From a virus (taxonomy: Duplodnaviria > Caudoviricetes), in IMG/VR virus record IMGVR_UViG_3300036772_000333, positions 1-56,983 of that record: 56,983 bases of DNA. One strand, 5' to 3'. Positions 1-56,983 of the stretch are shown piece by piece. The translations under genes were made by a program, and so were the position numbers. The first letter of the stretch is position 1. Every line of letters starts with the position of its first letter. The notes beneath the pieces are model-generated. The model had not been told where the DNA came from, did no database searches, and saw only the letters and a list, made by a program, of their open reading frames with translations.

Positions 1-127
1 TTCCGCCGGAAAATGTCATGCTGCCTTGGGTTCCGCCAAGTGTCAGGGCAGCCGTGATGATTGTTACACTCAAACCCGCCGGTGTCGATACGGAAAATAA
101 GCCTGTTGTCGCATCATAACCAACCAG
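1..127. repeat. 127-bp terminal direct repeat, copy 1 (assembly overlap of a circular/permuted genome)
   Basis: 1-127 is identical to 56857-56983. Confidence 0.97.
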
Positions 128-3700: not shown

Positions 3701-4062
3701 GGGCGGAAGGTCATAAAACTGAGCGGCAACCCGGAGAGTCCGGTTTTGATCTGCGTCGAATTCAAGTAGAGAATCCCTGCGGTTGTGCCTTCGATCAGGG
3801 CGAACCCTGATCCTGGACCGGCGGGCGTGGCGTCATTCAACCGCAGCACGGAGATCACCGAAGCCGGCAGCGCGGAGGGCAGGACGTTGGCCCCCAACGG
3901 GGCGCGTGCCACCATGCGATCCTGCAGATAGCGACGCACGTTCTGCAGGAAGGCGTATTTTTTGGGTGGCAGGATATCGGCCGGAAGCACAAGGTTCATG
4001 CCGCCGAAGTCGAGGCGCACACCGTTTTTGTCTCGGGAGTACTGTTTAGGAGGCATTGACAT
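784..4062 (-). CDS. Podovirus tail nozzle / tail tubular protein B-like (P22 gp10-like), 1092 aa
   Basis: N-terminal DFGGMNL...NVR motif and beta-propeller-like W/G/D pattern; lies between an adaptor-like gene and ejection-like genes. Confidence 0.65.
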   Translation of the reverse strand: MSMPPKQYSRDKNGVRLDFGGMNLVLPADILPPKKYAFLQNVRRYLQDRMVARAPLGANVLPSALPASVISVLRLNDATPAGPGSGFALIEGTTAGILYLNSTQIKTGLSGLPLSFMTFRPNASPQPWAYIGDANGMVKVRSDGTIWKVGIAEPQTAAGVTFVGGGTGTTQIFYTYVYRSSVTGALSNPAPDSIPGTNSQFGPSETIPATAFATNYTFNSLQYEFNSPQLRTTGSVGSGVTTDFVVVKMGSTPFTVPEGVNIDGISVDLNWVGQFAGTGVLTAVSLYYLGQQIGNQKFPGIPNSASSTDAIQGGNADTWGATLTPDIINDPSFGFGVQITTQTVGGSDRSFINSMGVTVFYSVQDASIVPTPSSDPQVDKIDFYRQGGGLANFTYVGTGPNSATAFVDTLSDLGAATNQQLQFDNLEPFPSIDLPKAGVVNVAAGAVAGTMQVTWVSGDQFNVRWLPGTLIVIGGVAYQFYNRPTSATQVTVILPAALPTTLTNLTYNIAEPDLAAQPSPVIWGPTPDNAGAYYFGLDPLNTGDLVWSKGNNFDSAPDTNRLAVTSPAEPLQNGTITSELSTVFSSERFWLIIPNFADALATVTGTTGTQWAIIQSAATRGLYMRYAIAALGSLIFYRAKDGIFASAGGGAEKSVSDDIYNLFPHEGHVPQPVVIGGQTVFPPDDTKPNAQQLSLAAGYLYYDYQDTNGNPRTLVFDTEGKGWTVDAYTPPVNVHSWQVGQNINAVLVGCTDGTVRTMGSGNTEAQNAIIVTKSENGGDSRAIKRIGDVFLKAQLAGTTTIGLYSTRGTVALSGFSPNSITGSGTLIPYILDFTSGFADDLDDISLKASWSINLANILDLWQPDWIELPENVQDRPTDWDDLGTDSNKFIQGLLLQADSLGAAKTFHVEDELGNLHTPTPSPTTFNGQSVQAFSFATPFVTHLVRIVSTDGVPWRIWPSGTGSAKWIAVPYPDAAETWTTEGSDNGLRGWQHIYQINLAYIATQEVTVTVTTDQGNFSVAWPATGSQVNPAKVVMKCPPNKFKICSFSVTCSVPFFLWKEDVEVWIGAWGRAKAYTIKKPFGAESQGDTAAI

Positions 4063-5443
4063 CCTCCAGTGCGTACCGTGGGTCCAGTTCCTCGCCGCGA
4101 TGCCCTTCGAGCAACATCTCGCGCGTAAAGATGCCGAGGGCCACCTTGCGCTTCCTCTCCATCAGACAGTATTCCTCGAATTGCTGGTAGAGCGGCAGGG
4201 TCGCCAGGAACTCTGCGCCACCCATCTTGAACATCGCAAGATGCTGCGCGTAACAGAGAATGGCTTCGACGCCATCGGGAGAGAGCTGCACGTCGATGGA
4301 GGGGTCGACGGGGGCATTGCCGACCAGGGTTAGGATGGTCGAGACCGTCGCCGGGGGAGAGCCGCCAAAGCCTCCGGTGCCAAACCCACCGGGTTCTGCG
4401 CCGAATCCTATGCCAAACCCGACAAACGGGGCGGTCGCAACCAAATCCATGCCGCCGGTAACGAGTTGAGGGTCTGCGATACGCCAGGTGTTTTCCCAGT
4501 TCTGCGCGTAGGCGTCCATCTCGTCGACCGAGACTGTATCGACGGGAAGACCGAGAATCTCCGACCAAAGAATCCACGGCAGGAGGACCATGCCTTTGAG
4601 TGCCTTCTGGTAGCGCATGAGGCAGTATTTGGCGCGTGGGTCGTCAGTGGCTTCGGGAGCGTTTGCAAGGCAATCCGCCAAGGCACCGTACATCGCGGCC
4701 CAACACCAATCATCGGGAAGGCCAACCAGATTGGCCGTGGGGGGATCAAACGGTACGCCGCTCTGCAGGGTGATCAGATCCCATGTTCCCGGAGAGTTTG
4801 GGGTCGAACTGCAGTCGAAAAAGATCGGGGTGTTCGCGGTGATCATCCAGCTTTCAGGCGGTCCCACGGTCGCGAGCAGAGAGTTTCCGTAGGCGTTGGC
4901 GCTTAGCCGGTCTTCCTTGGCCAAGGCGTAGGGGGTTTCGACGCTTGGAGGGTTTTGAGGAATCCACCGCACCCGTCTCAGGTCGATCGTGGTCTCTGGT
5001 AATTGGGTCGTGACCCCCACGATCGGGCTGGCCAATGCGGTACCCTGCTGCACGTTGGCGCCGGAGTACTGCAGCAACTCGTCGCGCCGGTACTGCAGGG
5101 CCTCCGATAGGTTGGTGATGTTGAACTGGCTGGTTCCGGTCCACGTGGACCCTGTGGTTTTCTCCAGCAGCATGTACTCCATCTGGGTATAAATCTCGGT
5201 ATCGGTAACGGTTCTGACGCGGGGTGACGGTGCGGTGGTCAGGGTTTTCCAGGTATCGCCGGAGTTGAAGTCCAACTGGTAGGGTGCTACCCAGGTAGCG
5301 GTCTGGGCGTTGAGAACGCGCAGAGCTTCGATGAGGTAGAGTTGGGCCTCGTCGGTGGAGGTGAAGACCCCATTGATATCCTGAAGGCGTTGCAGGAGTG
5401 AGGCCTGCAGTTGCGCGAAGCTTACGTAACTGTAACCAGCCAT
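4046..5443 (-). CDS. Head-tail adaptor / tail tubular protein A-like, 465 aa (internally duplicated adaptor fold)
   Basis: GGAGG RBS; N-terminus SFAQLQASLLQRLQD...YLIEALR is typical of adaptors; directly upstream of the nozzle. Confidence 0.6.
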   Translation of the reverse strand: MAGYSYVSFAQLQASLLQRLQDINGVFTSTDEAQLYLIEALRVLNAQTATWVAPYQLDFNSGDTWKTLTTAPSPRVRTVTDTEIYTQMEYMLLEKTTGSTWTGTSQFNITNLSEALQYRRDELLQYSGANVQQGTALASPIVGVTTQLPETTIDLRRVRWIPQNPPSVETPYALAKEDRLSANAYGNSLLATVGPPESWMITANTPIFFDCSSTPNSPGTWDLITLQSGVPFDPPTANLVGLPDDWCWAAMYGALADCLANAPEATDDPRAKYCLMRYQKALKGMVLLPWILWSEILGLPVDTVSVDEMDAYAQNWENTWRIADPQLVTGGMDLVATAPFVGFGIGFGAEPGGFGTGGFGGSPPATVSTILTLVGNAPVDPSIDVQLSPDGVEAILCYAQHLAMFKMGGAEFLATLPLYQQFEEYCLMERKRKVALGIFTREMLLEGHRGEELDPRYALEDVNAS

Positions 5444-5474
5444 AGACCTCCCCTTTTACCAACACGATACCACT

Positions 5475-5970
5475 AGCCGCCTCTTCCTTGGGAGCATTTG
5501 TTTCGGGGCGCAACTCTCCTGTGCGGTAGTGGAAAACTACTAACCCTGAACCCGCGTGGCGCGACACGTTGGAACGTGCCGTAGAGCCCGTTCGGGCGAA
5601 CTGTTATGCCTGATATCCCATACTCGCTTGATCCCTTAAACGAGATAGAGGCCATCTAAGGCAGGGGCGATTACGACTGGAATCCGACTCTGATTGAACG
5701 CCTACCGTTGGGACAGCCCCCTCCGGTCTGTTAGTGCGCCATCGCGAGTATCGGACTCCCAACTTTCCGCCCGAGCACACCCCGCAGGGTATCCGGCAAC
5801 CAAACTCTCGTCCTACCGGCGTGCTGCCGATTTAGGGACTGGTCGAACATAACGACGCTATGGGAATGCAGGTTCATCTAACCGCGCCGCCTCGCTTTCG
5901 CGAAGATGCCGAGACATAGGAGTACGCTTTCAACGTGGAGTCCGAATTTTTCGGGTTCGATGAGCGCATA
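5475..5970 (-). ncRNA. Candidate large structured non-coding RNA (~500 nt), family not recognised
   Basis: Long-range helices 5958-5968/5735-5744 and 5937-5945/5751-5759; GAAA and GAGA tetraloop hairpins; G-U wobbles consistently favour the minus strand; no convincing ORF. Confidence 0.55.
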
Positions 5971-5997
5971 TTCTTTATAAACTTGGCAACTAAACCA

Positions 5998-6026
5998 TTG
6001 CACAAGTCGTCCGAATATGTCAATAT
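5998..6026 (+). promoter_or_regulatory. sigma70-type promoter for the small RNA
   Basis: TTGCAC-17 nt-CAATAT with an upstream TG; predicted +1 at about 6033, the first base of the closing stem. Confidence 0.5.
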
Positions 6027-6032
6027 TGCAGT

Positions 6033-6109
6033 TGCGGGGTGACCGTCGAATCATCCCGATTCGAGTGCATGTGAGCTTGGCGGCAACATCTAACTCGGAG
6101 CGCCCCGCA
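6033..6109 (+). ncRNA. Candidate C4/CI-like antisense small RNA (77 nt, three-way junction)
   Basis: Closing stem TGCGGGGTG/CGCCCCGCA; hairpin TCGAATC/GATTCGA; hairpin with TTGGCG loop. Confidence 0.5.
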
Positions 6110-6117
6110 CAATATCA

Positions 6118-6143
6118 AAGCCCCTCAAAACATCGAGGGGCTT
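6118..6143. terminator. Hairpin terminator, possibly bidirectional
   Basis: AAGCCCCTC...GAGGGGCTT inverted repeat between the sRNA and the convergent 6177-6653 gene; U-tracts are weak. Confidence 0.55.
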
Positions 6144-6176
6144 ACCTTATGAGAAATTTTCCCTGCATGAAAACAG

Positions 6177-6653
6177 TTACTTTTTCGGTACGGCCCACGT
6201 CTGCGTGGCAGCGTCGTAGGTCGCGGCCTCCGGCAGACTGTTTTCTTTTCTGACGATCCCTTTGACGCTCTCCATCTGTCCCGCCGCCCCGTTGACGCGC
6301 TCCATCAACTCCCGGTTCGCCTCGACAAACTTCCTCTGCGCGTCCGCATTCAATTGATCGCTTTGCTTCTTCAACTGATCGACCTGGTCCAGTAACGGCT
6401 TATACCGCTTATCGGCTCGGATCTGATCCAATAACTGCTTTTGAAGCGCCGCTGCCTTCTCATTCAACTCTTTATTGCTTGCGTCCAGACTTGAGCGCGC
6501 CTGTTGGGTCTTGGTGTCCAGTTGCGCCTTGTCGACGGCATATTGCTGCGCCATCTTGTTGAGCGTCTGGGAGGCTACGGAGTCCTTGACCGGTTCCTGG
6601 GCCATGACGCCTGCCGTAATCAGCACTATTGCAAGAAAAACCCCTATCTTCAC
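6177..6653 (-). CDS. Secreted/periplasmic coiled-coil protein (158 aa)
   Basis: AAGGAG RBS then GTG; MKIGVFLAIVLITAGVMA|QE signal peptide; heptad-rich body. Confidence 0.75.
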   Translation of the reverse strand: MKIGVFLAIVLITAGVMAQEPVKDSVASQTLNKMAQQYAVDKAQLDTKTQQARSSLDASNKELNEKAAALQKQLLDQIRADKRYKPLLDQVDQLKKQSDQLNADAQRKFVEANRELMERVNGAAGQMESVKGIVRKENSLPEAATYDAATQTWAVPKK

Positions 6654-6701
6654 CGTATCTCCTTGTATTTTCCAGTACACCAATAACACTCGCCGTTGCG
6701 G

Positions 6702-6926
6702 TCAAACACGTGCCCGCCGTGAATCCACCGACACACCATTCTCTCGATCCATGCGTTCATCCCGTAGCTCCTTGAACCTCTTTTGCGTCGAATACCCCGG
6801 ATCATGCTCCCCGTTCTCAATCCCAACCACTGTCCGGCGCGTCACCCCAAGCGCTTCGGCAAACTCCGCCTGCGTAAGCCCTTGCCCTTTTCTCCACTCC
6901 CGGAAGACCCTTCCATGCTCGTACAT
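6702..6926 (-). CDS. XRE-family HTH transcriptional regulator
   Basis: RKGQGLTQAEFAEALGVTRRTVVGIENG HTH_3 motif. Confidence 0.9.
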   Translation of the reverse strand: MYEHGRVFREWRKGQGLTQAEFAEALGVTRRTVVGIENGEHDPGYSTQKRFKELRDERMDRENGVSVDSRRARV

Positions 6927-9067: not shown

Positions 9068-9205
9068 ATGCACGATCCGAAGTGTTACGAATTAGCAGAA
9101 TACTTTTACCCCAATGAGAGCGGCGAGTTTCTTAACGAACTTGCTGAAGAAATACAGAGTCTTGTCGAATACCTCAACCCCAATAATCCGGAGAGTGAAG
9201 TATGA
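9068..9205 (+). CDS. Small acidic hypothetical protein (45 aa)
   Basis: ATG directly after the upstream TAA; MHDPKCYELAEYFYPNES... Confidence 0.55.
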   Translation: MHDPKCYELAEYFYPNESGEFLNELAEEIQSLVEYLNPNNPESEV

Positions 9206-9252
9206 CCCAAGAACTCCAGTCTGTACTGCGGACAAAAAAAGGAGAAAGTTCA

Positions 9253-10170
9253 ATGATTTCATCAGATAAGGCCGTCCTACTTGCCTTTCACGGTAAGCAG
9301 TCGGTAAAGGACTTCTATATCAACCGCATCAAAGAGCATCGCGCAGCCGATGAAATCGTTCGCGGCCAATACTGGGATAAAGACCATGACGGTGTTTTCA
9401 GGGGATGCGCTGTTGGCTGTACGCTTCATTCTTCAAGCCATGCAGCCTATGAAATCGAGCTGGGGATACCTCGCATCTTGGCCCGATTGGAAGATGGGAT
9501 TTTTGAGAATATGCCCCAAGAAAACGCTCCCGATTGGCCACTTCGCTTCCTTGAATCCGTTCCTGTTGGAGCCGATTTGTCATTGGTGTGGCCAAAGTTT
9601 GCAGTATGGATGCTTGGCGATCTCAATGAAGGCGTGATCCGCTTTGCTAAATCAGACAAAACACGCGAGGCAATCCAAGATATCGCGGATATGTACTTGC
9701 GGATTGTTGCAGGAGAAAAGATAGAACCTAATGCATGGCTAAAGGAAAGGCGTGCTGCTGCTGCTTATGCTGATGCTTATGCTTATGCTGATGCTTATGC
9801 TGCTGATGCTTATGCTTATGCTGATGCTTATGCTGCTGCTGCTGCTTATGCTGATGCTGCTGATGCTTATGCTGCTGCTGCTGCTTATGCTGCTTATGCT
9901 GCTGATGCTTATGTTTATGCTGCTGATGCTGCTGATGCTTATGCTGCTGCTGCTACTTATGCTGCTTATGCTGCTGATGATGCTGATGCTGCTCGTGCTG
10001 CTGCTGCTGATGCTGCTGATGATGCTGATGATGTTTATGATGTTTATGATGTTTATGCTGCTGATGCTGCTCGTGCTGCTGCTGCTGATGCTTGGCGCAA
10101 AACGCGCCTCGCACAAGCCGATAAGCTTGTCGAGATTATGGCCTCATCCCCTGTTTTGGAGACGGTATGA
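9253..10170 (+). CDS. Hypothetical protein with an Ala/Asp/Tyr low-complexity insert
   Basis: GGAG RBS before ATG 9253; globular N-domain GCAVGCTLHS...EIELGIP followed by AAAYADA repeats. Confidence 0.8.
   Translation: MISSDKAVLLAFHGKQSVKDFYINRIKEHRAADEIVRGQYWDKDHDGVFRGCAVGCTLHSSSHAAYEIELGIPRILARLEDGIFENMPQENAPDWPLRFLESVPVGADLSLVWPKFAVWMLGDLNEGVIRFAKSDKTREAIQDIADMYLRIVAGEKIEPNAWLKERRAAAAYADAYAYADAYAADAYAYADAYAAAAAYADAADAYAAAAAYAAYAADAYVYAADAADAYAAAATYAAYAADDADAARAAAADAADDADDVYDVYDVYAADAARAAAADAWRKTRLAQADKLVEIMASSPVLETV
9751..10092 (+). repeat. Coding trinucleotide-type low-complexity tract (GCT/GAT/TAT)
   Basis: 114 consecutive codons all ending in T. Confidence 0.95.
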
Positions 10171-10696: not shown

Positions 10697-10875
10697 GAGC
10701 GATTACCACATACCAGGTTGAACAGAAATTTAGAAACAGAGGGTGGATAAAATGCTGGTTCGCGGAATTTAAATTACTTAAAACCGCCCGGCAATTAATG
10801 GTTGATGTCAAGAATAAACGCGAAGAAGGCATGGCCTATCGAATCGTAAAGCTCACACGTGAGGTGATCGAATGA
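10693..10875 (+). CDS. Hypothetical protein
   Basis: ATGA coupling; GGAG RBS. Confidence 0.5.
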   Translation: MRAITTYQVEQKFRNRGWIKCWFAEFKLLKTARQLMVDVKNKREEGMAYRIVKLTREVIE

Positions 10876-10896
10876 GCGCAATCAAGGAGGCTAAAC

Positions 10897-11079
10897 GTGA
10901 CAACTGATCTAGCACTCAAAATAGGCGCACTCTCTGGGGCGTATTGGTTCATCTCAGGAGTGTTACTTTACCTGGCGATCTGTTTTATCATCCACTGCTT
11001 TTTGAGAGTGATTAGTTGCTGCATGATGGCAATTGGATTTTGGCTAGATGGAGTAGCAGAGAAGGCGGGGAAGCGATGA
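10897..11079 (+). CDS. Small membrane protein
   Basis: AAGGAGG RBS then GTG; hydrophobic. Confidence 0.55.
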   Translation: MTTDLALKIGALSGAYWFISGVLLYLAICFIIHCFLRVISCCMMAIGFWLDGVAEKAGKR

Positions 11080-11209
11080 CCTTCGGCATATTCTTTGGAT
11101 CGATGGATGAGTGGATCATCTTGTATCGACCTTGGTTACATGCTGTTCGAGGACTCAGAAAGAGCCGGTTATTGAAACCTGGGAAGTATCGCAGATTTTG
11201 CAGGATCAA

Positions 11210-11410
11210 ATGATCGATATTGTTCTGGAAGTACTGGAAGACCAGCTATATACCCTTTCAGGGACATGGAAGTAGGAGATAGTTTTCTGGTTGAGGGCAA
11301 GCATATCAATCGAATTTCTTGGGATGCTTGCAAATACTCCAAAAATATTAGGTGCGCGATTCGCGTGCAGAACTGTAGAAGGTGGGGTTAGGGTTTGGAG
11401 GATCAAATGA
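11210..11410 (+). pseudogene. Frameshifted small phage DNA-binding-like gene (YPFxxMEVGDSF...GVRVWR type)
   Basis: GRPAIYPFRDMEVGDSF is in one frame, FACRTVEGGVRVWRIK* in another (shift at the A5 run 11341-11345); the coupled ATG at 11210 is out of frame with the first motif. Confidence 0.6.
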
Positions 11411-11616
11411 TCGAAAACCACATGGTCCTTCCTGATTACAGCGAGTTCCGCAGAGCCAAGCCAGAGCCTCACAGATGCCCGTGGTGCCATCAGATCGTAT
11501 CGCTTGATGAAGAGGGAGTCAGTTTGAGCGAAAGTGAGATCTGGTGCAATGACTGCCTGGGAGAGAGTTGGTGCGAGGGGTTGAATTTGTTGCCGAGAGA
11601 TGAGGGGGATAACTAA
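11407..11616 (+). CDS. Small CxxC...CxxC protein
   Basis: GGAGG RBS; CPWC...CNDC. Confidence 0.6.
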   Translation: MIENHMVLPDYSEFRRAKPEPHRCPWCHQIVSLDEEGVSLSESEIWCNDCLGESWCEGLNLLPRDEGDN

Positions 11617-11777
11617 ATGAAGCGACCCAATAGAACTGACGATAGTTTGATCTTGGCAATTTCTCGCAACAGGGTAAGGTTTCTAGCTTACGCTAAATAT
11701 TTCTTCGAACCCAAGCTTATTGAATTTCTCGGACCAAATGATTTTCCGAAAATTCTCAAATAGAGAGGACGCCGAAC

Positions 11778-15226: not shown

Positions 15227-15811
15227 TCATGCCGGTATCCCCCTCATCTTTTCATAGTCAGCCACATGCTCCGCGATATACCAATCGAACACCGCATCGA
15301 GGGCCGTCTTACGGCTGGAGGTTCCCTCGATCGCCATCGCTATCTCGATAGCCTCGTCCTGCTTCGTCGCGCGATGCTCGAGGTGCTGCTCTGGCGCTGT
15401 CCGTTGGATGGTCGATATAAACTCCCGTTCCGACTGTGCCGCCGCCGCCTGGAGCGTTTCAGGGCGATTGCGGACCTCTGTCGAGAGAGACTGCATCACC
15501 ACGATATTGCAGCGAGGGATCCCAGCCAGCTTCTCCGAGTCAATATCTCGCAATTCCTCGGCCGCCGCCATCGCCGCATAGCAATCCCGATAACTGTACG
15601 GTGCTGCAGAGAGTACCCACCGATCAAACGAAGTGTAGGGCGCATCCGTGGTTGGATCGGTGAGGTCGTCCCATGGAAAACGCCGCTTCATCTCCCGCAG
15701 TATCAGTCCGCGCTCAATGTAGGAGGTCTTCGCCGTTACATCAAGAGAGCGTACTCTTTGGTCGAGGTAATAGGTTGCCTGTTTTTCCAACAGGGAAAAT
15801 TTCTCATTCAT
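15227..15811 (-). CDS. Hypothetical protein
   Basis: ATGA coupling; 194 aa. Confidence 0.75.
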   Translation of the reverse strand: MNEKFSLLEKQATYYLDQRVRSLDVTAKTSYIERGLILREMKRRFPWDDLTDPTTDAPYTSFDRWVLSAAPYSYRDCYAAMAAAEELRDIDSEKLAGIPRCNIVVMQSLSTEVRNRPETLQAAAAQSEREFISTIQRTAPEQHLEHRATKQDEAIEIAMAIEGTSSRKTALDAVFDWYIAEHVADYEKMRGIPA

Positions 15812-16353: not shown

Positions 16354-17960
16354 GCCGTCTTTCTGTTTGCTTCCATCAACTTCGATACCTGCAACTTCGT
16401 GCTGCCCGCTGGAATCACGATACCTTCACGTTTGCACTGGTCAATCTGGCCCTGCGTCGGGTGCTCGGTCTTCGCGCGACGGATTCGTCGGCCAGTCTCG
16501 AAGTTCTGCACCTCGCGCGAGGGCGGGGCTGATACCTTGTCCAACTGGTTGGGCCAAACTCCGAATTTCTCCCGATAGGCGTGGGCTGCCCACCCGTCCT
16601 GGTGTCCGCGAGACCGGGCGATATGCAGCAGCCCGGAGTAGAACTCCTGTTTGGTCGCCATCGTCGCTTTGGGCTTGGTCGACTTCGATCCCCACTCCAC
16701 CAACTCCCCATCCTCAACGGTGACGCCGCTGAGCATCAGTTGCTCCGCCTTGCACCCTGGGCATATCCGCTCCCCCTTCGCCATGACCATGCCACATTTC
16801 GCGCACTTCTTCGGCTTAGGTGCCGGTTTGTCCTTCGATTCTGCCGACTTATCCGTCTTCTTCTGGCAATTCATCGTATCGTGGTGGATGTCAGTCACCA
16901 TGCCAAGGCGCAGGGTGTTGCCGGCATGGTCGAGGATCAGGAGTTCTCGTTTTTCAGGAGCTGTGCGGAGGCCTCGGCCAATCTTTTGTACGTGCTTGAT
17001 TTCACTTTTCGTGGGTGCTGCGTCAACAATGCATCGCACATCTTCATCCACTCCTGTAACGAGACACCCGACGCTTGCAATAATTTTATCGCTGCCTTCT
17101 CGAAACCTGCGGAACGTATTTCTTCTATCATCATCATCTGAATAGGCGTCAATGTATCCACAACTAATTCCGGCATCGTGAAACTCCTTCTGCAGAGATT
17201 GAGCATGTTTGCATTCAACGGCAAAGAGGAACGTAGGCAGGCCCGCAGCCCTCTCCTGCCACGTCTTGACGATGTCAGCCACCAGTACCGGCTTATCCAT
17301 CGCCTCCGAAAGTTGGTGCTCGTTGTAATCGCCTGCTGTTATTTTCACCTTCGACAGGTCAGCCTCTTGCTGTGGGGCGTAGATGCGAAACGGCACCAAA
17401 TGACCTTCATCGATGAGCTGCTGCGTCCGTGCGGCTACGATCAGCTTCGTCCATCGCAACCCCATACCCTTAGCCCAAGGCGTGGCTGACAGGCCGATGA
17501 CGATCTTATCTTTCCACTCCTCGGAGTCGAGGATTTCGTTGAGTTTGTCCCACTGGTTGTGACACTCATCGATGATGACGAAGTCAACCTCCGGCACTGC
17601 CCGACGGATCAGCGTCTGGACGCTGGCAATCTGCACCGGTTGCAGCCAATCCGTGCGCTCGTGCTTCGCCTGGATCACCCCGATGCGATGGATGCCTTCC
17701 GCCTCAAACGCCTTCAGAGTCTGGTTGACCAGATTGATGGCAGGGCAGGTGAACATCGCACGGTTGCCCTTGGCGACCGCCCCAGAGAGGATGTGCGCGC
17801 TCAACAGGGTTTTCCCGAACCCTGTAGGGGCTTGCACGACGATGCGCTTATGACCGGCTTTGACGGCGTCGCGGATCATCGGGATGCAGGCAGCCTGCCG
17901 GGGGCGCAGAGGGCGGAGCTTGCCCTCTGGTTCCACCCCGAAAAGGGAGTTTTGCTTCAT
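16350..17960 (-). CDS. SF2 DEAD/DEAH-box helicase with C-terminal Zn ribbon
   Basis: APTGFGKT, DECH, SAT, QKIGRGLR, CxxC...CxxC. Confidence 0.95.
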   Translation of the reverse strand: MKQNSLFGVEPEGKLRPLRPRQAACIPMIRDAVKAGHKRIVVQAPTGFGKTLLSAHILSGAVAKGNRAMFTCPAINLVNQTLKAFEAEGIHRIGVIQAKHERTDWLQPVQIASVQTLIRRAVPEVDFVIIDECHNQWDKLNEILDSEEWKDKIVIGLSATPWAKGMGLRWTKLIVAARTQQLIDEGHLVPFRIYAPQQEADLSKVKITAGDYNEHQLSEAMDKPVLVADIVKTWQERAAGLPTFLFAVECKHAQSLQKEFHDAGISCGYIDAYSDDDDRRNTFRRFREGSDKIIASVGCLVTGVDEDVRCIVDAAPTKSEIKHVQKIGRGLRTAPEKRELLILDHAGNTLRLGMVTDIHHDTMNCQKKTDKSAESKDKPAPKPKKCAKCGMVMAKGERICPGCKAEQLMLSGVTVEDGELVEWGSKSTKPKATMATKQEFYSGLLHIARSRGHQDGWAAHAYREKFGVWPNQLDKVSAPPSREVQNFETGRRIRRAKTEHPTQGQIDQCKREGIVIPAGSTKLQVSKLMEANRKTA

Positions 17961-19516: not shown

Positions 19517-19545
19517 ACTGTACGCGAATGGTTCTTGCTTGTCAA
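19517..19545 (-). promoter_or_regulatory. sigma70 promoter of the recombination/replication operon
   Basis: TTGACA-17 nt-TACAGT. Confidence 0.8.
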
Positions 19546-19553
19546 GCAGGGAA

Positions 19554-19596
19554 AATTGCTCATTTTCTCACTAATTCATTTGCAAAATGAGCAATT
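19554..19596. repeat. Perfect 13-bp inverted repeat with 17-nt spacer
   Basis: AATTGCTCATTTT (19554-19566) / AAAATGAGCAATT (19584-19596). Confidence 0.85.
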
Positions 19597-34659: not shown

Positions 34660-35196
34660 ATGCCCGCACCCGTGAAACGTCACGAGGTTTCTCAGCCGCT
34701 TGATCAATCTTACCGCCTTATTCCCCTTACCCGAGGACAAACCGCAATCGTTGATGTAGAGGACTACGACCGCCTGAGTGGGCACTACTGGAACGCTCAT
34801 TGGAATCCTCTCTCCAAGAGCTTCTACGCTGTTCGAAATGTTCGCCTGCCTACAGCCGAGAGACGCTATACCGCTAGCTACATGCACAACGAGGTTATGC
34901 AGGTACCACGCGGTATCGACCATAAGCGATGCGAAGACACTCTCGATAACCGCAAGAGCAATCTTCGTCACGCCAACGCCTCCCAGCAAGGAGCTAATCA
35001 GGCCATTCGCGCAGACAACAAAAGTGGATACAAGGGGGTTTTTCTCAAGGATAACGGTAGATACCGCGCCAAAGTCTTCAAGGACCGGAAGCAGTATGAC
35101 GCGGGAACCCACTCGACCGCAGAAGAGGCTGCCCGTGCCTACGATGCCTTGGCTCGGGAACTTCATGGCGAATTCGCTTGGCTCAACTTCCGTTAA
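34660..35196 (+). CDS. HNH-AP2 homing endonuclease (inverted)
   Basis: IPLTRGQTAIVD.ED, DH...LDNRKSNLR, AP2 motif AEEAARAYD..A..LHGEFA. Confidence 0.92.
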   Translation: MPAPVKRHEVSQPLDQSYRLIPLTRGQTAIVDVEDYDRLSGHYWNAHWNPLSKSFYAVRNVRLPTAERRYTASYMHNEVMQVPRGIDHKRCEDTLDNRKSNLRHANASQQGANQAIRADNKSGYKGVFLKDNGRYRAKVFKDRKQYDAGTHSTAEEAARAYDALARELHGEFAWLNFR

Positions 35197-46635: not shown

Positions 46636-47309
46636 TCGAGATGGTATGCACTACTCTGTGGCAACCGCGATGGTCCGAGTGTGTTCAGTCGTGGCGCGAC
46701 ACCGCCAATGCTTACCTTCCCGTCAACGTAATCGCAGGTCAAACTCTGATGCACGCCTACGAGCAAGGCAGGATCGAGTCGACAGAAACTATCCTGGGAT
46801 ATGTCCACGATGACGTGATCATTTATGAAAAGGGGTGGGATGAGCGCGTGCGTCGAGAGTTTGAAGACTTGAATGTAGTGATGGTTGGATTCGGAGGGGC
46901 TTTGGGACATGGGCACCCGGCACTCTATTCTCCCCCTTACCAGATCGGGAAGCTGGCTCGTCAGCAGTTCATGTCGAACATGAGGAATGCAGAGCAGCAT
47001 GGGCAGAGGTTCAGCGAAGCGCGGGATGTTTCGGTGCTGGACGGGTTCGCGGTGTTCATCCGTCGGTCATTTCTCCAAGAGTGTGGCGGGTGGCCGCAAG
47101 ATGGAAGTTACGGTTATTTTCTTTATATGGAATATATGTGTTGCATGTCGAGGCGCCTCGGCTATAACATCAGGCTAGTGGGAGTCGATTGCGAACACTT
47201 GGGGGGAAAGTCCTCCGGACTAAAACAGGATCAGGTTTTTGATTATGAAGGCGAACATCTCCGGCTATATGAGCAATTCAAAGACGTTTTACCCCACCGA
47301 GTCCCCTGA
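46632..47309 (+). CDS. GT2-like glycosyltransferase (GT-A)
   Basis: YVHDDV, VLDG...IRR, CEHLGG. Confidence 0.85.
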   Translation: MIEMVCTTLWQPRWSECVQSWRDTANAYLPVNVIAGQTLMHAYEQGRIESTETILGYVHDDVIIYEKGWDERVRREFEDLNVVMVGFGGALGHGHPALYSPPYQIGKLARQQFMSNMRNAEQHGQRFSEARDVSVLDGFAVFIRRSFLQECGGWPQDGSYGYFLYMEYMCCMSRRLGYNIRLVGVDCEHLGGKSSGLKQDQVFDYEGEHLRLYEQFKDVLPHRVP

Positions 47310-47964
47310 TTGGAGATATCTCGCGGGACTGTGGGATGGAGAGGGGTGCGTCGGTATTTGCTGTGTTAGGCAGAAGAGGAAGGACGGTACCTACAGCGTG
47401 TACTGGGATCTTCGCCTAATGCTGTCAAATACAAGCGAAAAATTGATCAGATCACTACTGGAGGAATTCGGAGGAAACGCCCATTTTGGGTCGAAGGTGT
47501 ATCCCTATGCGAAGAAGATAGCCAATCAATGGAAGGTTCAAAATTCCAGACATAGCTTGCACATCCTTAGAAATATTCTCCCTTTCCTCAGATACAAGGA
47601 TGAAGAAGCTAAGTTGGCCATAGAGTTTCTATCCGGGGTTGAGCGCAACAAAGGCGTAAGCCTATCCGCATCGGAAGTGGATCGACGCAACGACTTGATT
47701 GAAAGGATACGGCAAGTAGCGGGCCGAAGGGTCAAGCCAGTTAGGGCCGAAAAAATGGAGCACCGAACTCCGAACGCATCACTAAATCAGATTCCTGGGC
47801 CAAGAAATAAGTCTGGAATTATCGGAGTTTCGTGGATACCCAGCAAGGGGAAATGGATGGCGCACAAAGGCAAGGATGGGAAAAATAAAACGCTCGGGTA
47901 TTCAGACACCAAAGAAGGTGCCGCTGCCATACGTGCAGCACGAGATTTGGAGGACGCCGAATGA
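47269..47964 (+). CDS. LAGLIDADG homing endonuclease with C-terminal AP2-like domain
   Basis: YLAGLWDGEG; ILPFLRYK; NKSGIIGVSW...KW.A...LG. Confidence 0.88.
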   Translation: MSNSKTFYPTESPDWRYLAGLWDGEGCVGICCVRQKRKDGTYSVYWDLRLMLSNTSEKLIRSLLEEFGGNAHFGSKVYPYAKKIANQWKVQNSRHSLHILRNILPFLRYKDEEAKLAIEFLSGVERNKGVSLSASEVDRRNDLIERIRQVAGRRVKPVRAEKMEHRTPNASLNQIPGPRNKSGIIGVSWIPSKGKWMAHKGKDGKNKTLGYSDTKEGAAAIRAARDLEDAE

Positions 47965-49811: not shown

Positions 49812-50332
49812 AGATCGGATATAACGTCGGTAGTGGGCAGAGGCCCTTCAAGAGCACATCGGAAATCCAATGGATCAACACAGACAAAATTGCTCACGAA
49901 GGGATGCCAGCCCCCGACCTATTGGCCGATGGTGCACATCTCCCCTGCGGAGACCAAACCGCCGACTACTTTGTGCTCTCCCAAGTTTATGAACATTTTG
50001 GTTGCGGAGAAGCGATTGATCTGCTACAAGAGTCCTATAGAGTCTTAAAGCCGGGAGGATCGCTAATCATATCTGTTCCCAATATGAAGGCGATTGCCCA
50101 GAGATGGGTAGACGGCCTGATAGATGAGTACATTTTCATGGTCTGCACCTACGGTGCTTTCATGGGCCATGAAGAGGATAGGCATCGTTGGGGAACGACG
50201 CCTGAAAGTTTGGTTCGGGATATAGAAAAGAGTGCGAATTGGAAATCCATCCAAACCTTCAACTCTCGACCAATACCCGGACTCGACGTAGCAAGGGATT
50301 GGTGGATAACGTGTCTAGAAGCGATACGGTAG
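49808..50332 (+). CDS. Class I SAM methyltransferase (type 11-like)
   Basis: NVGSG, EH, RVLKPGG...ISVP. Confidence 0.88.
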   Translation: MKIGYNVGSGQRPFKSTSEIQWINTDKIAHEGMPAPDLLADGAHLPCGDQTADYFVLSQVYEHFGCGEAIDLLQESYRVLKPGGSLIISVPNMKAIAQRWVDGLIDEYIFMVCTYGAFMGHEEDRHRWGTTPESLVRDIEKSANWKSIQTFNSRPIPGLDVARDWWITCLEAIR

Positions 50333-50979
50333 AAATACCGCTCACATTTAATAAGGTTGCCGTGATCGACTCGGATGATTTCGAGTCGATATCTCCATAC
50401 AAATGGAGAGCAGAGCGAACCAAACGTGGAACCTACTATGCGGTAGCCACCATTGGCAGAAAAAATGTTCGTATGCATCAATTGGTAATGCCTGATGCCG
50501 TGGAGCGAGATCACAAGGATGGCGATGGACTGAATAATCGAAGAAGCAATCTTCGATCTGTTACACATGCACAGAACATGCACAACTCACTAAAAGCAAG
50601 AACGCCGAATGCCAGCTCTAGATTTAAAGGGGTAGCTTTTCAGAAGAGGCTCAAGTCTCGACCTTGGCAAGCTCGAATTGGAGATAAGCACCTCGGATAC
50701 TTCGAGACCGAAGAAGAGGCTGGTACTGCTTACGACTTGGCCGCCAACGCTGAGCGTGGCGAATATGCGAAAACAAACAATCTGGATGTACCGATAACTC
50801 CGAATCATCGGTATCGAATAGTCCGAAAGGAATTTAGGGCACAGCCGATTCTGGGGCACCCAGAAGCTAGAATCCTTGAGTACGAATTGGAGTGCGGTCA
50901 CGTACATTCCATATCGGCGTGTAAGGCAGAAAAGATCGGCACAGAGTCGCGCTGCAAAACCTGCATTGGAGCAATATGA
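50302..50979 (+). CDS. HNH-AP2 homing endonuclease
   Basis: DHKDGDGLNNRRSNLR; SRFKGV; LGYF.TEEEA..AYD. Confidence 0.9.
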   Translation: MDNVSRSDTVEIPLTFNKVAVIDSDDFESISPYKWRAERTKRGTYYAVATIGRKNVRMHQLVMPDAVERDHKDGDGLNNRRSNLRSVTHAQNMHNSLKARTPNASSRFKGVAFQKRLKSRPWQARIGDKHLGYFETEEEAGTAYDLAANAERGEYAKTNNLDVPITPNHRYRIVRKEFRAQPILGHPEARILEYELECGHVHSISACKAEKIGTESRCKTCIGAI

Positions 50980-56827: not shown

Positions 56828-56983
56828 CTAGGTTGCAGGCGTTTGAGCGGTTAGCCTTCCGCCGGAAAATGTCATGCTGCCTTGGGTTCCGCCAAGTGTC
56901 AGGGCAGCCGTGATGATTGTTACACTCAAACCCGCCGGTGTCGATACGGAAAATAAGCCTGTTGTCGCATCATAACCAACCAG
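56828..56983 (-). CDS. 3' end of the origin-spanning virion protein (...GSMTFSGGRLTAQTPAT*)
   Basis: Same frame as 787->1 after removing the 127-bp overlap; TAG at 56828-56830, followed by the GGAG RBS of the next gene. Confidence 0.8.
   Translation of the reverse strand: MVGYDATTGLFSVSTPAGLSVTIITAALTLGGTQGSMTFSGGRLTAQTPAT
56857..56983. repeat. 127-bp terminal direct repeat, copy 2
   Basis: Identical to 1-127. Confidence 0.97.

Follow-up and report, generated by a model that had tools for sequence, protein, structure and literature searches.

A predicted structured RNA of about 470 nt in the largest intergenic gap of a soil phage genome, with relatives in other phages and no Rfam counterpart

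The DNA analyzed here, called the window, is a whole phage record of IMG/VR, 56,983 bp long, with genes for terminase, portal and major capsid protein. Between two of its minus-strand genes, coding for a secreted coiled-coil protein of 170 aa and a virion structural protein of 465 aa, lies the gap 5444-6176. If open reading frames (ORF) are cut off at 61, 70 or 80 aa, the gap is the biggest ORF-free stretch that the genome contains (449-609 nt). A previous reading made from the letters alone (the sequence-only reading) had singled it out as the largest non-coding stretch, which holds at these cut-offs and fails at 100 aa, where 10833-11777 exceeds it. With a probability of roughly three in four, the gap is home to a gene for a structured RNA, conserved and non-coding, that would span about 470 nt of the minus strand (~5987 to ~5513) and whose family is absent from Rfam. 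The sequence-only reading had proposed a selected minus-strand RNA structure of some 500 nt from an undescribed family, a proposal that is backed by homologs, shared base pairs, non-coding frames, promoter-like hexamers and the lack of an Rfam match.

The family emerged from covariance models. The first model (R1), built from 243 nt of the window alone, was run on the whole records of five relatives; two of them, G002 and G003, matched it along its entire length (42.6 bits, E ~2e-11). These two records carry the element as identical DNA, 16 kb away from their homolog of the 465-aa gene. Compared pairwise, the window and G002 are similar over ~400 nt, from ~5957 to ~5583 of the window, and show no similarity in the flanks. 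A second model (R2) matched G066 (83.8 bits), G063 (53.8), G023 (24.3) and G007 (16.2). A third model (R3), of the 5′ part, recovered all earlier copies, matched G004 with 130.9 bits and gave weak matches in G042, G032 and G005 (17-21 bits). On inspection, these three contain promoter-like hexamers (-35-like TTGACA), a strand of the helix P1 and a block of the ACAAUUCG type; a GUGCG-type block is found in G042 and G032, and the 3′ domain is different in all three. A strict three-block pattern searched over all 2.9 million IMG/VR contigs matched 8 contigs, in which the element is identical or 98% identical to that of G002/G003, G063, G066 or G004; it was this pattern that added G004 to the copies found with R1 and R2. 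Altogether the element is represented by 10 distinct sequences with three types of 3′ domain. It is present in 10 of the 75 related phage records reached through protein homologs, a lower bound given that many records are fragments. The flanking 465-aa proteins of the related records are 32-53% identical to that of the window, and the homologs extend beyond near-identical strains.

The comparison with Rfam 15 (4227 models) yielded no match on the whole window. At E <= 10, the region 5300-6300 gave only three hits, all at chance level (12-16 bits, where the gathering scores are 40-95), and at E <= 1 the six homolog loci gave only a tRNA outside the element. Rfam 15 includes GOLLD, ROOL, HEARO, OLE, raiA, group I and II introns, RNase P, tmRNA and 6S. 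Sequence searches were equally empty: blastn of 5300-6300 against the phage collection found nothing, exact gap words of 21-28 nt are absent from IMG/VR and from the prokaryote genomes searched, and six-frame translations of the gap against all loci gave nothing under E = 0.19. The homologs of the 465-aa gene were gathered in 3 + 14 + 77 loci. By blastn and nhmmer, the gap is absent from 97 loci flanking 465-aa homologs and from three loci flanking 170-aa homologs; R1 gave no hit over the 97 flanking loci and 38 whole records. The null at the flanking loci is misleading because these genomes carry the element at another place. When the gap was compared by BLAST with the complete sequences of G001-G003, a single 17-nt chance match came back; the homolog in G002/G003 is too diverged for this search. 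No prophage with the 465-aa profile was found in 185,579 species genomes. Folding-energy statistics and synteny-restricted searches alike thus produced a false negative for a family that a single-sequence covariance model found over the whole genomes of relatives.

The window copy (type A, 5513-5987, minus strand) is supported by the covariance-model hits, an RNAalifold consensus and a column-to-window map. Four type A copies are full-length, those of the window, G002, G066 and G023; the consensus was calculated on their MAFFT alignment and consists of 93 base pairs. Standard pairs occupy 89.4% of the cells, compared with 75.2 ± 1.5% in shuffled alignments (0 of 500 reach the observed value) and 37-44% in slid controls. 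Both sides have changed in 42 of the 93 pairs, against 20.2 ± 3.0 in the shuffles (again 0 of 500) and 6-15 in the slid controls. The covariation score is 0.554, versus 0.257 in the shuffles and 0.10-0.15 in the slid controls. The covariation check suggested by the sequence-only reading is therefore positive on the four full-length copies. Many conserved G-U pairs occur in the consensus, and its long-range helices span ~200 nt.

The 5′ end of the RNA is set by the predicted promoter and by helix P1, which comes from a seven-sequence fold, pairs GCCAAG (5987-5982) with CUCGGC (5913-5908) and shares its region with the conserved 5′ module (5908-5987). The second pair of P1 is CG in three, UA in two and UG in one of these sequences. 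The 5′ module holds the ACAAUUCG-type block, whose version in the window is AAAAUUCG (5950-5943) and whose columns are invariant or almost so in 10 sequences. Downstream, consensus helices 3 and 4 form the GNRA hairpin CUUCGC-GAAA-GCGAGG (5890-5905), in which the stems vary and the loop stays GAAA or GCAA in the window, G002, G066, G063, G023 and G004. The adjacent hairpin (5853-5889) is made of helix 5, CGGCGC/GCGUCG (5889-5884/5858-5853), and an inner stem, helix 6 (5878-5875/5868-5865); the cells of both are 100% paired, and three of six and two of four pairs, respectively, have changed on both sides. Helix 8 is a long-range helix (5631-5839) between GUCCCU (5839-5834) and AGGGAU (5636-5631), flanked by conserved UAAAUC and GUUA; its cells are also 100% paired, with both sides changed in four of six pairs. 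Enclosed by it are helices 5812-5806/5645-5639, 5802-5793/5655-5646, 5776-5767/5670-5661 and 5755-5745/5692-5683, and the hairpin 5727-5718/5713-5704. In helix 15, seven of nine pairs have changed on both sides. The best-supported helices are the GNRA hairpin, helices 5 and 8, and those that start at 5812 and 5755. Read by eye, the type B copies (G063 and G004) keep the CCU/AGG long-range helix as CGCCU/AGGCG around a much shorter insert. A near-identical strain, sequenced at low depth from a second soil sample, is exact over 5851-5915 and then differs from the window over 86 nt. The switch at 5915 falls inside the RNA, just 5′ of consensus helix 2 (5916-5909/5621-5614), and the 5′ module may be exchanged between strains.

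A predicted sigma-70-like promoter precedes the element on the same strand (5994-6023): the -35 hexamer TTGACA (6023-6018), an 18-nt spacer and the -10 hexamer AATGGT (5999-5994), with 9 of 12 matches. From these positions, transcription would start at ~5987, where P1 begins. Hexamers resembling -35 and -10 stand ahead of all 10 copies, at comparable distances from the element, and can be aligned with a spacing of 17-19 nt; the spacers differ. The -35-like hexamer is TTGACA in six copies and TTGACT, TTGCAT or TTGTAG in the others; the promoter of G063 is listed by the promoter scan. Just upstream of the -35 hexamer of the window, and slightly overlapping it, lies an inverted-repeat hairpin of ~100 bp with arms TGCGGGG...CCCCGCA (6020-6117), a candidate operator or insulator. 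These arms are found beside the -35 hexamer in the window, G004 and G032, and in shorter forms in G007 and G023 (5 of the 10 copies). A terminator-like hairpin on the minus strand (6118-6143), with a perfect G+C-rich stem of 9 bp, an 8-nt loop and a U-rich tail, would mark the end of the upstream unit. Its tail fails the U-tract rule of the terminator scan; similar hairpins with U runs stand ahead of the promoter in G002, G063 and G004.

The neighborhoods were examined for seven of the 10 copies, and the genes around the element differ among them. In the window, the RNA lies ahead of the structural operon that begins with the 465-aa gene; in G002 it faces the end of the replication operon; in G063 it lies between terminase and portal, on the other strand; in G007 it is two ORFs ahead of the late operon; in G023 it precedes a DUF551 gene, a zinc-ribbon gene and a tRNA; and in G004 and G066 it precedes a gene for an XRE-type helix-turn-helix (HTH) protein. 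In G004 the XRE-type gene comes directly downstream of the element, and G066 also has it on the downstream side; in the window it lies two genes upstream (6702-6926). No HTH gene was detected within ~1.5 kb in G002, G063, G023 and G007. The tRNA gene of G023 (locus L109, 2577-2648; 72 bits) is encoded on the strand of the RNA, ~600 nt further downstream. In G042 (locus L127), the first ORF behind the RNA, ~490 nt from where the element starts, resembles an endonuclease VII or HNH-type protein, judging from a motif seen by eye.

The proposed mechanism is as follows. The host RNA polymerase would transcribe the RNA from its own promoter, and the inverted repeat beside the -35 hexamer could serve as an operator, possibly for the XRE-type HTH protein. 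The RNA, made early in infection, would work alone as a folded and probably protein-binding molecule. Such stand-alone action in trans is tentative, at somewhat less than an even chance. The element would behave as a movable cassette, an "RNA moron". In the window only, where no terminator lies behind the RNA, the same promoter would also drive the 465-aa structural operon, which a genome rearrangement would have separated from the main late operon. A bolder and unlikely extension is that the element founds a new class of large phage RNA. In this extension, a movable unit of operator, host-type promoter and RNA has a conserved 5′ module and exchangeable domains of 200-350 nt, of types A, B and C. 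What an HTH-controlled early cassette delivers would then be the RNA itself, maybe an anti-defense or host-takeover factor or a ribozyme, and not a regulator of the neighboring gene.

Several observations weigh against a conserved structured RNA or against parts of the scheme. The base pairs were counted on the same four-sequence alignment that gave the structure, and the counts lean towards that structure. The covariation figures rest on shuffles and slid controls instead of significance values of the R-scape type. With seven sequences the MAFFT alignment degrades to only 38 pairs, with a covariation term of +0.29. P1 and helix 2 are mutually exclusive. On the 3′ side, the last conserved features are a hairpin at 5526-5540 and a helix strand at 5513-5516, and the 3′ end is undefined; the scans list no terminator-like site after the element in the window, G002, G063 or G066. 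The -10 hexamer of the window matches in only 3 of 6 positions, which is below the listing of the promoter scan. With E-values between 1e-4 and 2e-3, four of the 10 hits in related records are weak, only three of the seven copies scanned have an HTH gene nearby, a function in trans is a guess, and the sequencing runs listed for the window stretch are all of DNA (contigs). Folding energy, which the sequence-only reading had named as a check, is at background for both domains that it claimed. For 5730-5972, the minus strand has z = -1.46, equalled by 19 of 200 shuffles, and the plus strand +0.07; for 5475-5656 the values are -0.83 (minus) and -1.14 (plus). The whole gap gives -1.35, and windows of 120 nt within the claimed region range from +2.2 to -2.3.

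The genome-wide baseline (142 windows of 154 nt) has a mean of -0.12 and a standard deviation of 1.1, and 16 of the 142 windows reach z <= -1.46. The sole energetically unusual part is 5965-6118, upstream of the claimed region and made up of palindromes, with z = -2.93 on the minus strand (2 of 200 shuffles) and -3.02 on the plus strand (0 of 200). Only one baseline window has z <= -2.9 on both strands, namely 17800-17953 (-3.05 and -3.38), at the junction between a helicase gene and the next gene.

The architecture drawn by the sequence-only reading survived in part. All of its helices are complementary at the positions given, and its claim of G-U pairs available only to the minus strand agrees with five local hairpins that fold better on that strand. 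The two nested helices said to close a first domain (5958-5968/5735-5744 and 5937-5945/5751-5759) reach pairing probabilities of 0.95-0.99 only in a 243-nt cut, and fall to 0.00 in the 496-nt span and in all longer contexts. The helix said to close a second domain (5647-5652/5479-5484) has a probability of 0-0.39. In the family consensus, the closing strand UCCGA...CUCG (5755-5745) is paired with 5692-5683, and the GCCUCU strand is part of the helix 5802-5793/5655-5646. Among the listed helices, the GAAA hairpin at 5890-5905 is kept across the family and every other one is not.

Alternatively, the RNA could be a cis-acting leader, with a 5′ module (P1, ACAAUUCG and GUGCGCCUNGRC) that alters downstream transcription or translation, in an antitermination- or attenuator-like manner, and 3′ domains that are variable add-ons. 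The strongest conservation across the three types is indeed found in the first ~100 nt after the promoter, the scan detects nothing terminator-like between the RNA and the 465-aa gene of the window, and the RNA has same-strand ORFs or genes behind it in G004 and G066 (HTH genes in both), G007 and G023 and, by eye, in G042 and G005. The leader option, which the sequence-only reading had listed, fits the window, but not G002 and G063, where the element runs towards the 3′ end of a converging operon and there is no gene to lead. Moreover, the downstream genes are mutually unrelated, covarying helices extend across all 470 nt, beyond the 5′ part, and a separate promoter-like site (locus L111, 1187-1159; TTGACA, 17 nt, TAGGAT; 10/12) lies between the 3′ end of the G066 RNA and the downstream HTH gene. 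The pairing of the Shine-Dalgarno sequence also depends on the context: sequestration of the ribosome binding site was dropped as a candidate, given that the pairing partner shifts with the stretch that is folded. A leader is on balance unlikely, and stand-alone action is ranked above it because two copies have nothing to lead. Ranked lower still, and improbable, is a replication origin module, also among the options of the sequence-only reading. In that module a structured transcript would prime or activate DNA synthesis, as in ColE1 RNA II or a transcription-activated phage origin, and the inverted repeats would be signals at the DNA level. An origin would suit the strong-looking promoter followed by a structured intergenic transcript of ~500 nt, the AT-rich stretch of 53 bp at 5968-6020 (~36% G+C by hand count), the palindromes that score on both strands and the proximity of the element to the replication operon in G002. 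On the other hand, a search of the gap for iterons and tandem repeats found none, no turning point of the GC skew is tied to the site, and the element does not keep a constant place with respect to replication genes. Conservation of G-U pairs and of single-strand blocks suggests an RNA, and nothing suggests a DNA-RNA hybrid site.

The element could also be the ordinary spacer of a rearrangement junction, composed of a terminator, a promoter and a long untranslated leader, with helices that arise by chance and only regulatory DNA shared among the copies. This interpretation was favored at first and was abandoned once R1 matched G002 and G003. It agrees with the background folding z-scores and with the position of the gap at a synteny break: the ORF-free DNA upstream of the 465-aa homolog does not exceed 200 nt in 87 of 91 evaluable loci (maximum 490), and in the window a block of ~28 kb parts genes that are adjacent in G001 and G002. 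However, the similarity runs over ~400 nt, well past any promoter, and outlasts relocation to differing genomic contexts, and the 42 pairs changed on both sides far surpass the slid controls; a spacer is very improbable. Least credible of all, and hardly worth retaining, is a small protein gene of ~75 aa that is broken in the window by a TAG at 5878-5880. In G002 and G066, ORFs of 74-76 codons do overlap the element in the same orientation, and the window frame 6054-5731 is open but for this one TAG, aligned to TGG in G002. Nevertheless, the ORFs of G002 and G066 are in different alignment frames and have no similarity at the protein level. In a 72-nt ungapped block, the window and G002 differ at 8, 10 and 7 sites of codon positions 1, 2 and 3, respectively (counted by hand), and the model alignment is rich in indels of 1 and 2 nt. 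Codon usage is non-coding in all six frames of the gap, where the best ORF scores +0.05 per codon compared with 0.25 ± 0.14 in in-frame windows of real genes, and the gap ORFs match no Pfam or PHROG family at E <= 0.01. By these sequence comparisons, the reading frames of the element are not conserved and the element is not protein-coding. A template of a diversity-generating retroelement or a retron RNA was also considered and rejected: a Pfam scan of the 104 window ORFs found no reverse transcriptase domain, and the only repeat of at least 25 nt that the gap shares with another site is a 25-nt motif at the gap edge. A conserved structured RNA thus remains the preferred reading.

The genes that border the gap belong to different units. 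The upstream gene (6177-6689, minus strand; codon score +0.20) is the last of its minus-strand unit, and its 170-aa product has a weak OmpH-like Pfam match (E = 1e-4), under the curated cut-off; the signal peptide and the C-terminus are kept in eight homologs. The downstream gene (4046-5443, minus strand) is the first of the second structural operon and is preceded by a Shine-Dalgarno-like GGGGAGG (5453-5447) ahead of its ATG (5443-5441). Homologs of the 465-aa protein with 51-58% identity occur in 17 loci, and gp30 of Tunturiibacter phages, a "structural protein", shares 28% identity with it. Tunturiibacter podophages, at this same identity, are the only relatives in culture that were found, and are described as infecting Acidobacteriota (PMC11924767). 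In Tunturi_1, an HNH endonuclease gene lies directly upstream of the homolog of the 465-aa gene. In G001 and G002, the 465-aa gene directly follows the main late operon, whereas in the window ~28 kb lie between them. The homologs of the 358-aa and 465-aa genes are one small gene apart in these relatives, compared with the interval 5444-33602 in the window. The intervening block encodes four large proteins without homologs in G001, as well as lysis, replication and early genes.

The 25-nt near-palindromic motif at the edge of the gap begins with ATGAGMAATTTTCCCTG and was located, in a search with up to three mismatches, at 6149-6173 (plus strand), 15783-15807 (minus) and 19539-19563 (minus). 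The window contains four matches at this threshold, against 0.27 expected, and none of 100 shuffles reaches four. Two copies lie at gene starts of the replication module, and the third, in the opposite orientation, at the gap edge. The copies stand in differing reading frames and the motif would therefore be a DNA or RNA signal, probably a protein-binding site and perhaps an operator. The copy at 6149-6173 is outside the structured RNA.

The terminal direct repeat of the window (1-127 and 56857-56983) is exactly 127 bp long, a common assembler word length, and the identical ends may reflect a circular assembly instead of physical ends. Three free-standing genes resemble homing endonucleases, all on the plus strand: 34660-35196 (HNH/AP2), 47239-47964 (LAGLIDADG and AP2) and 50239-50979 (HNH_3). 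The HNH/AP2 gene is an opposite-strand insertion in the late operon and separates genes that lie side by side in relatives. Within the 322-aa ORF 9202-10170, the run 9702-10145 contains copies at a spacing of 9-12 nt, reported by the repeat finder as 27 overlapping copies of 168 nt, which suggests a protein repeat of short period, possibly collagen-like. No tRNA or tmRNA was detected in the window.

Fremin et al. 2023 (PMC10690425) reported 10,006 candidate structured RNAs of viruses and phages, with IMG/VR as the source and covariation as evidence, as for the present family. Six contig numbers of the family are not in six supplementary files of PMC10690425, three further files being outside the search. 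Early operons of the acr-aca type (PMC13551039) combine an inverted-repeat operator at the promoter with an HTH autoregulator. The element is alike in its inverted repeat beside the -35 hexamer and in the XRE-type HTH gene nearby in G004, G066 and the window. It differs in that the payload would be an RNA and not a small protein, and in that four copies have no HTH gene within ~1.5 kb. In systems of the ColE1 RNA II type, a sigma-70 promoter produces a structured, non-coding intergenic transcript of ~500 nt that acts as a primer. A promoter and transcript of the same kind are predicted here, whereas origin features (a GC-skew turning point, iterons or tandem repeats) were not found at the element. 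The put sequence of phage HK022 is an antitermination RNA of ~70 nt close to its promoter. It shares with the element the presence of a conserved structured phage RNA right after a promoter; the element, on the other hand, has ~470 nt, and in two of the genomes a polymerase reading past it would meet no gene.

It is rare for a new RNA family of bacteria or phages to exceed ~300 nt and to have many covarying helices, and the earlier large families (GOLLD, ROOL, OLE and raiA) proved to be unusual machines or assemblies. The present family occurs in soil phages, and the hosts of the only cultured relatives found suggest Acidobacteriota as a possible host group. How phages of that group regulate their genes is, to our knowledge, almost entirely undescribed. 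GOLLD and ROOL are large, ornate non-coding RNAs that are often carried by phages, and RNAs of this type are the subject of a cryo-electron microscopy study (PMC12286853). The element is likewise large, non-coding, phage-borne, composed of many helices and found by comparative analysis, and in G023 it has a tRNA ~600 nt downstream. Unlike them, it matches no Rfam model in the window or the six homolog loci, even at E <= 1-10, is smaller (~470 nt) and is so far confined to one group of soil phages. It also has a conserved promoter-like site and 5′ module joined to exchangeable 3′ domains. Such a combination of a conserved promoter-proximal module and large swappable domains, moving between sites, suggests an autonomous RNA gene.

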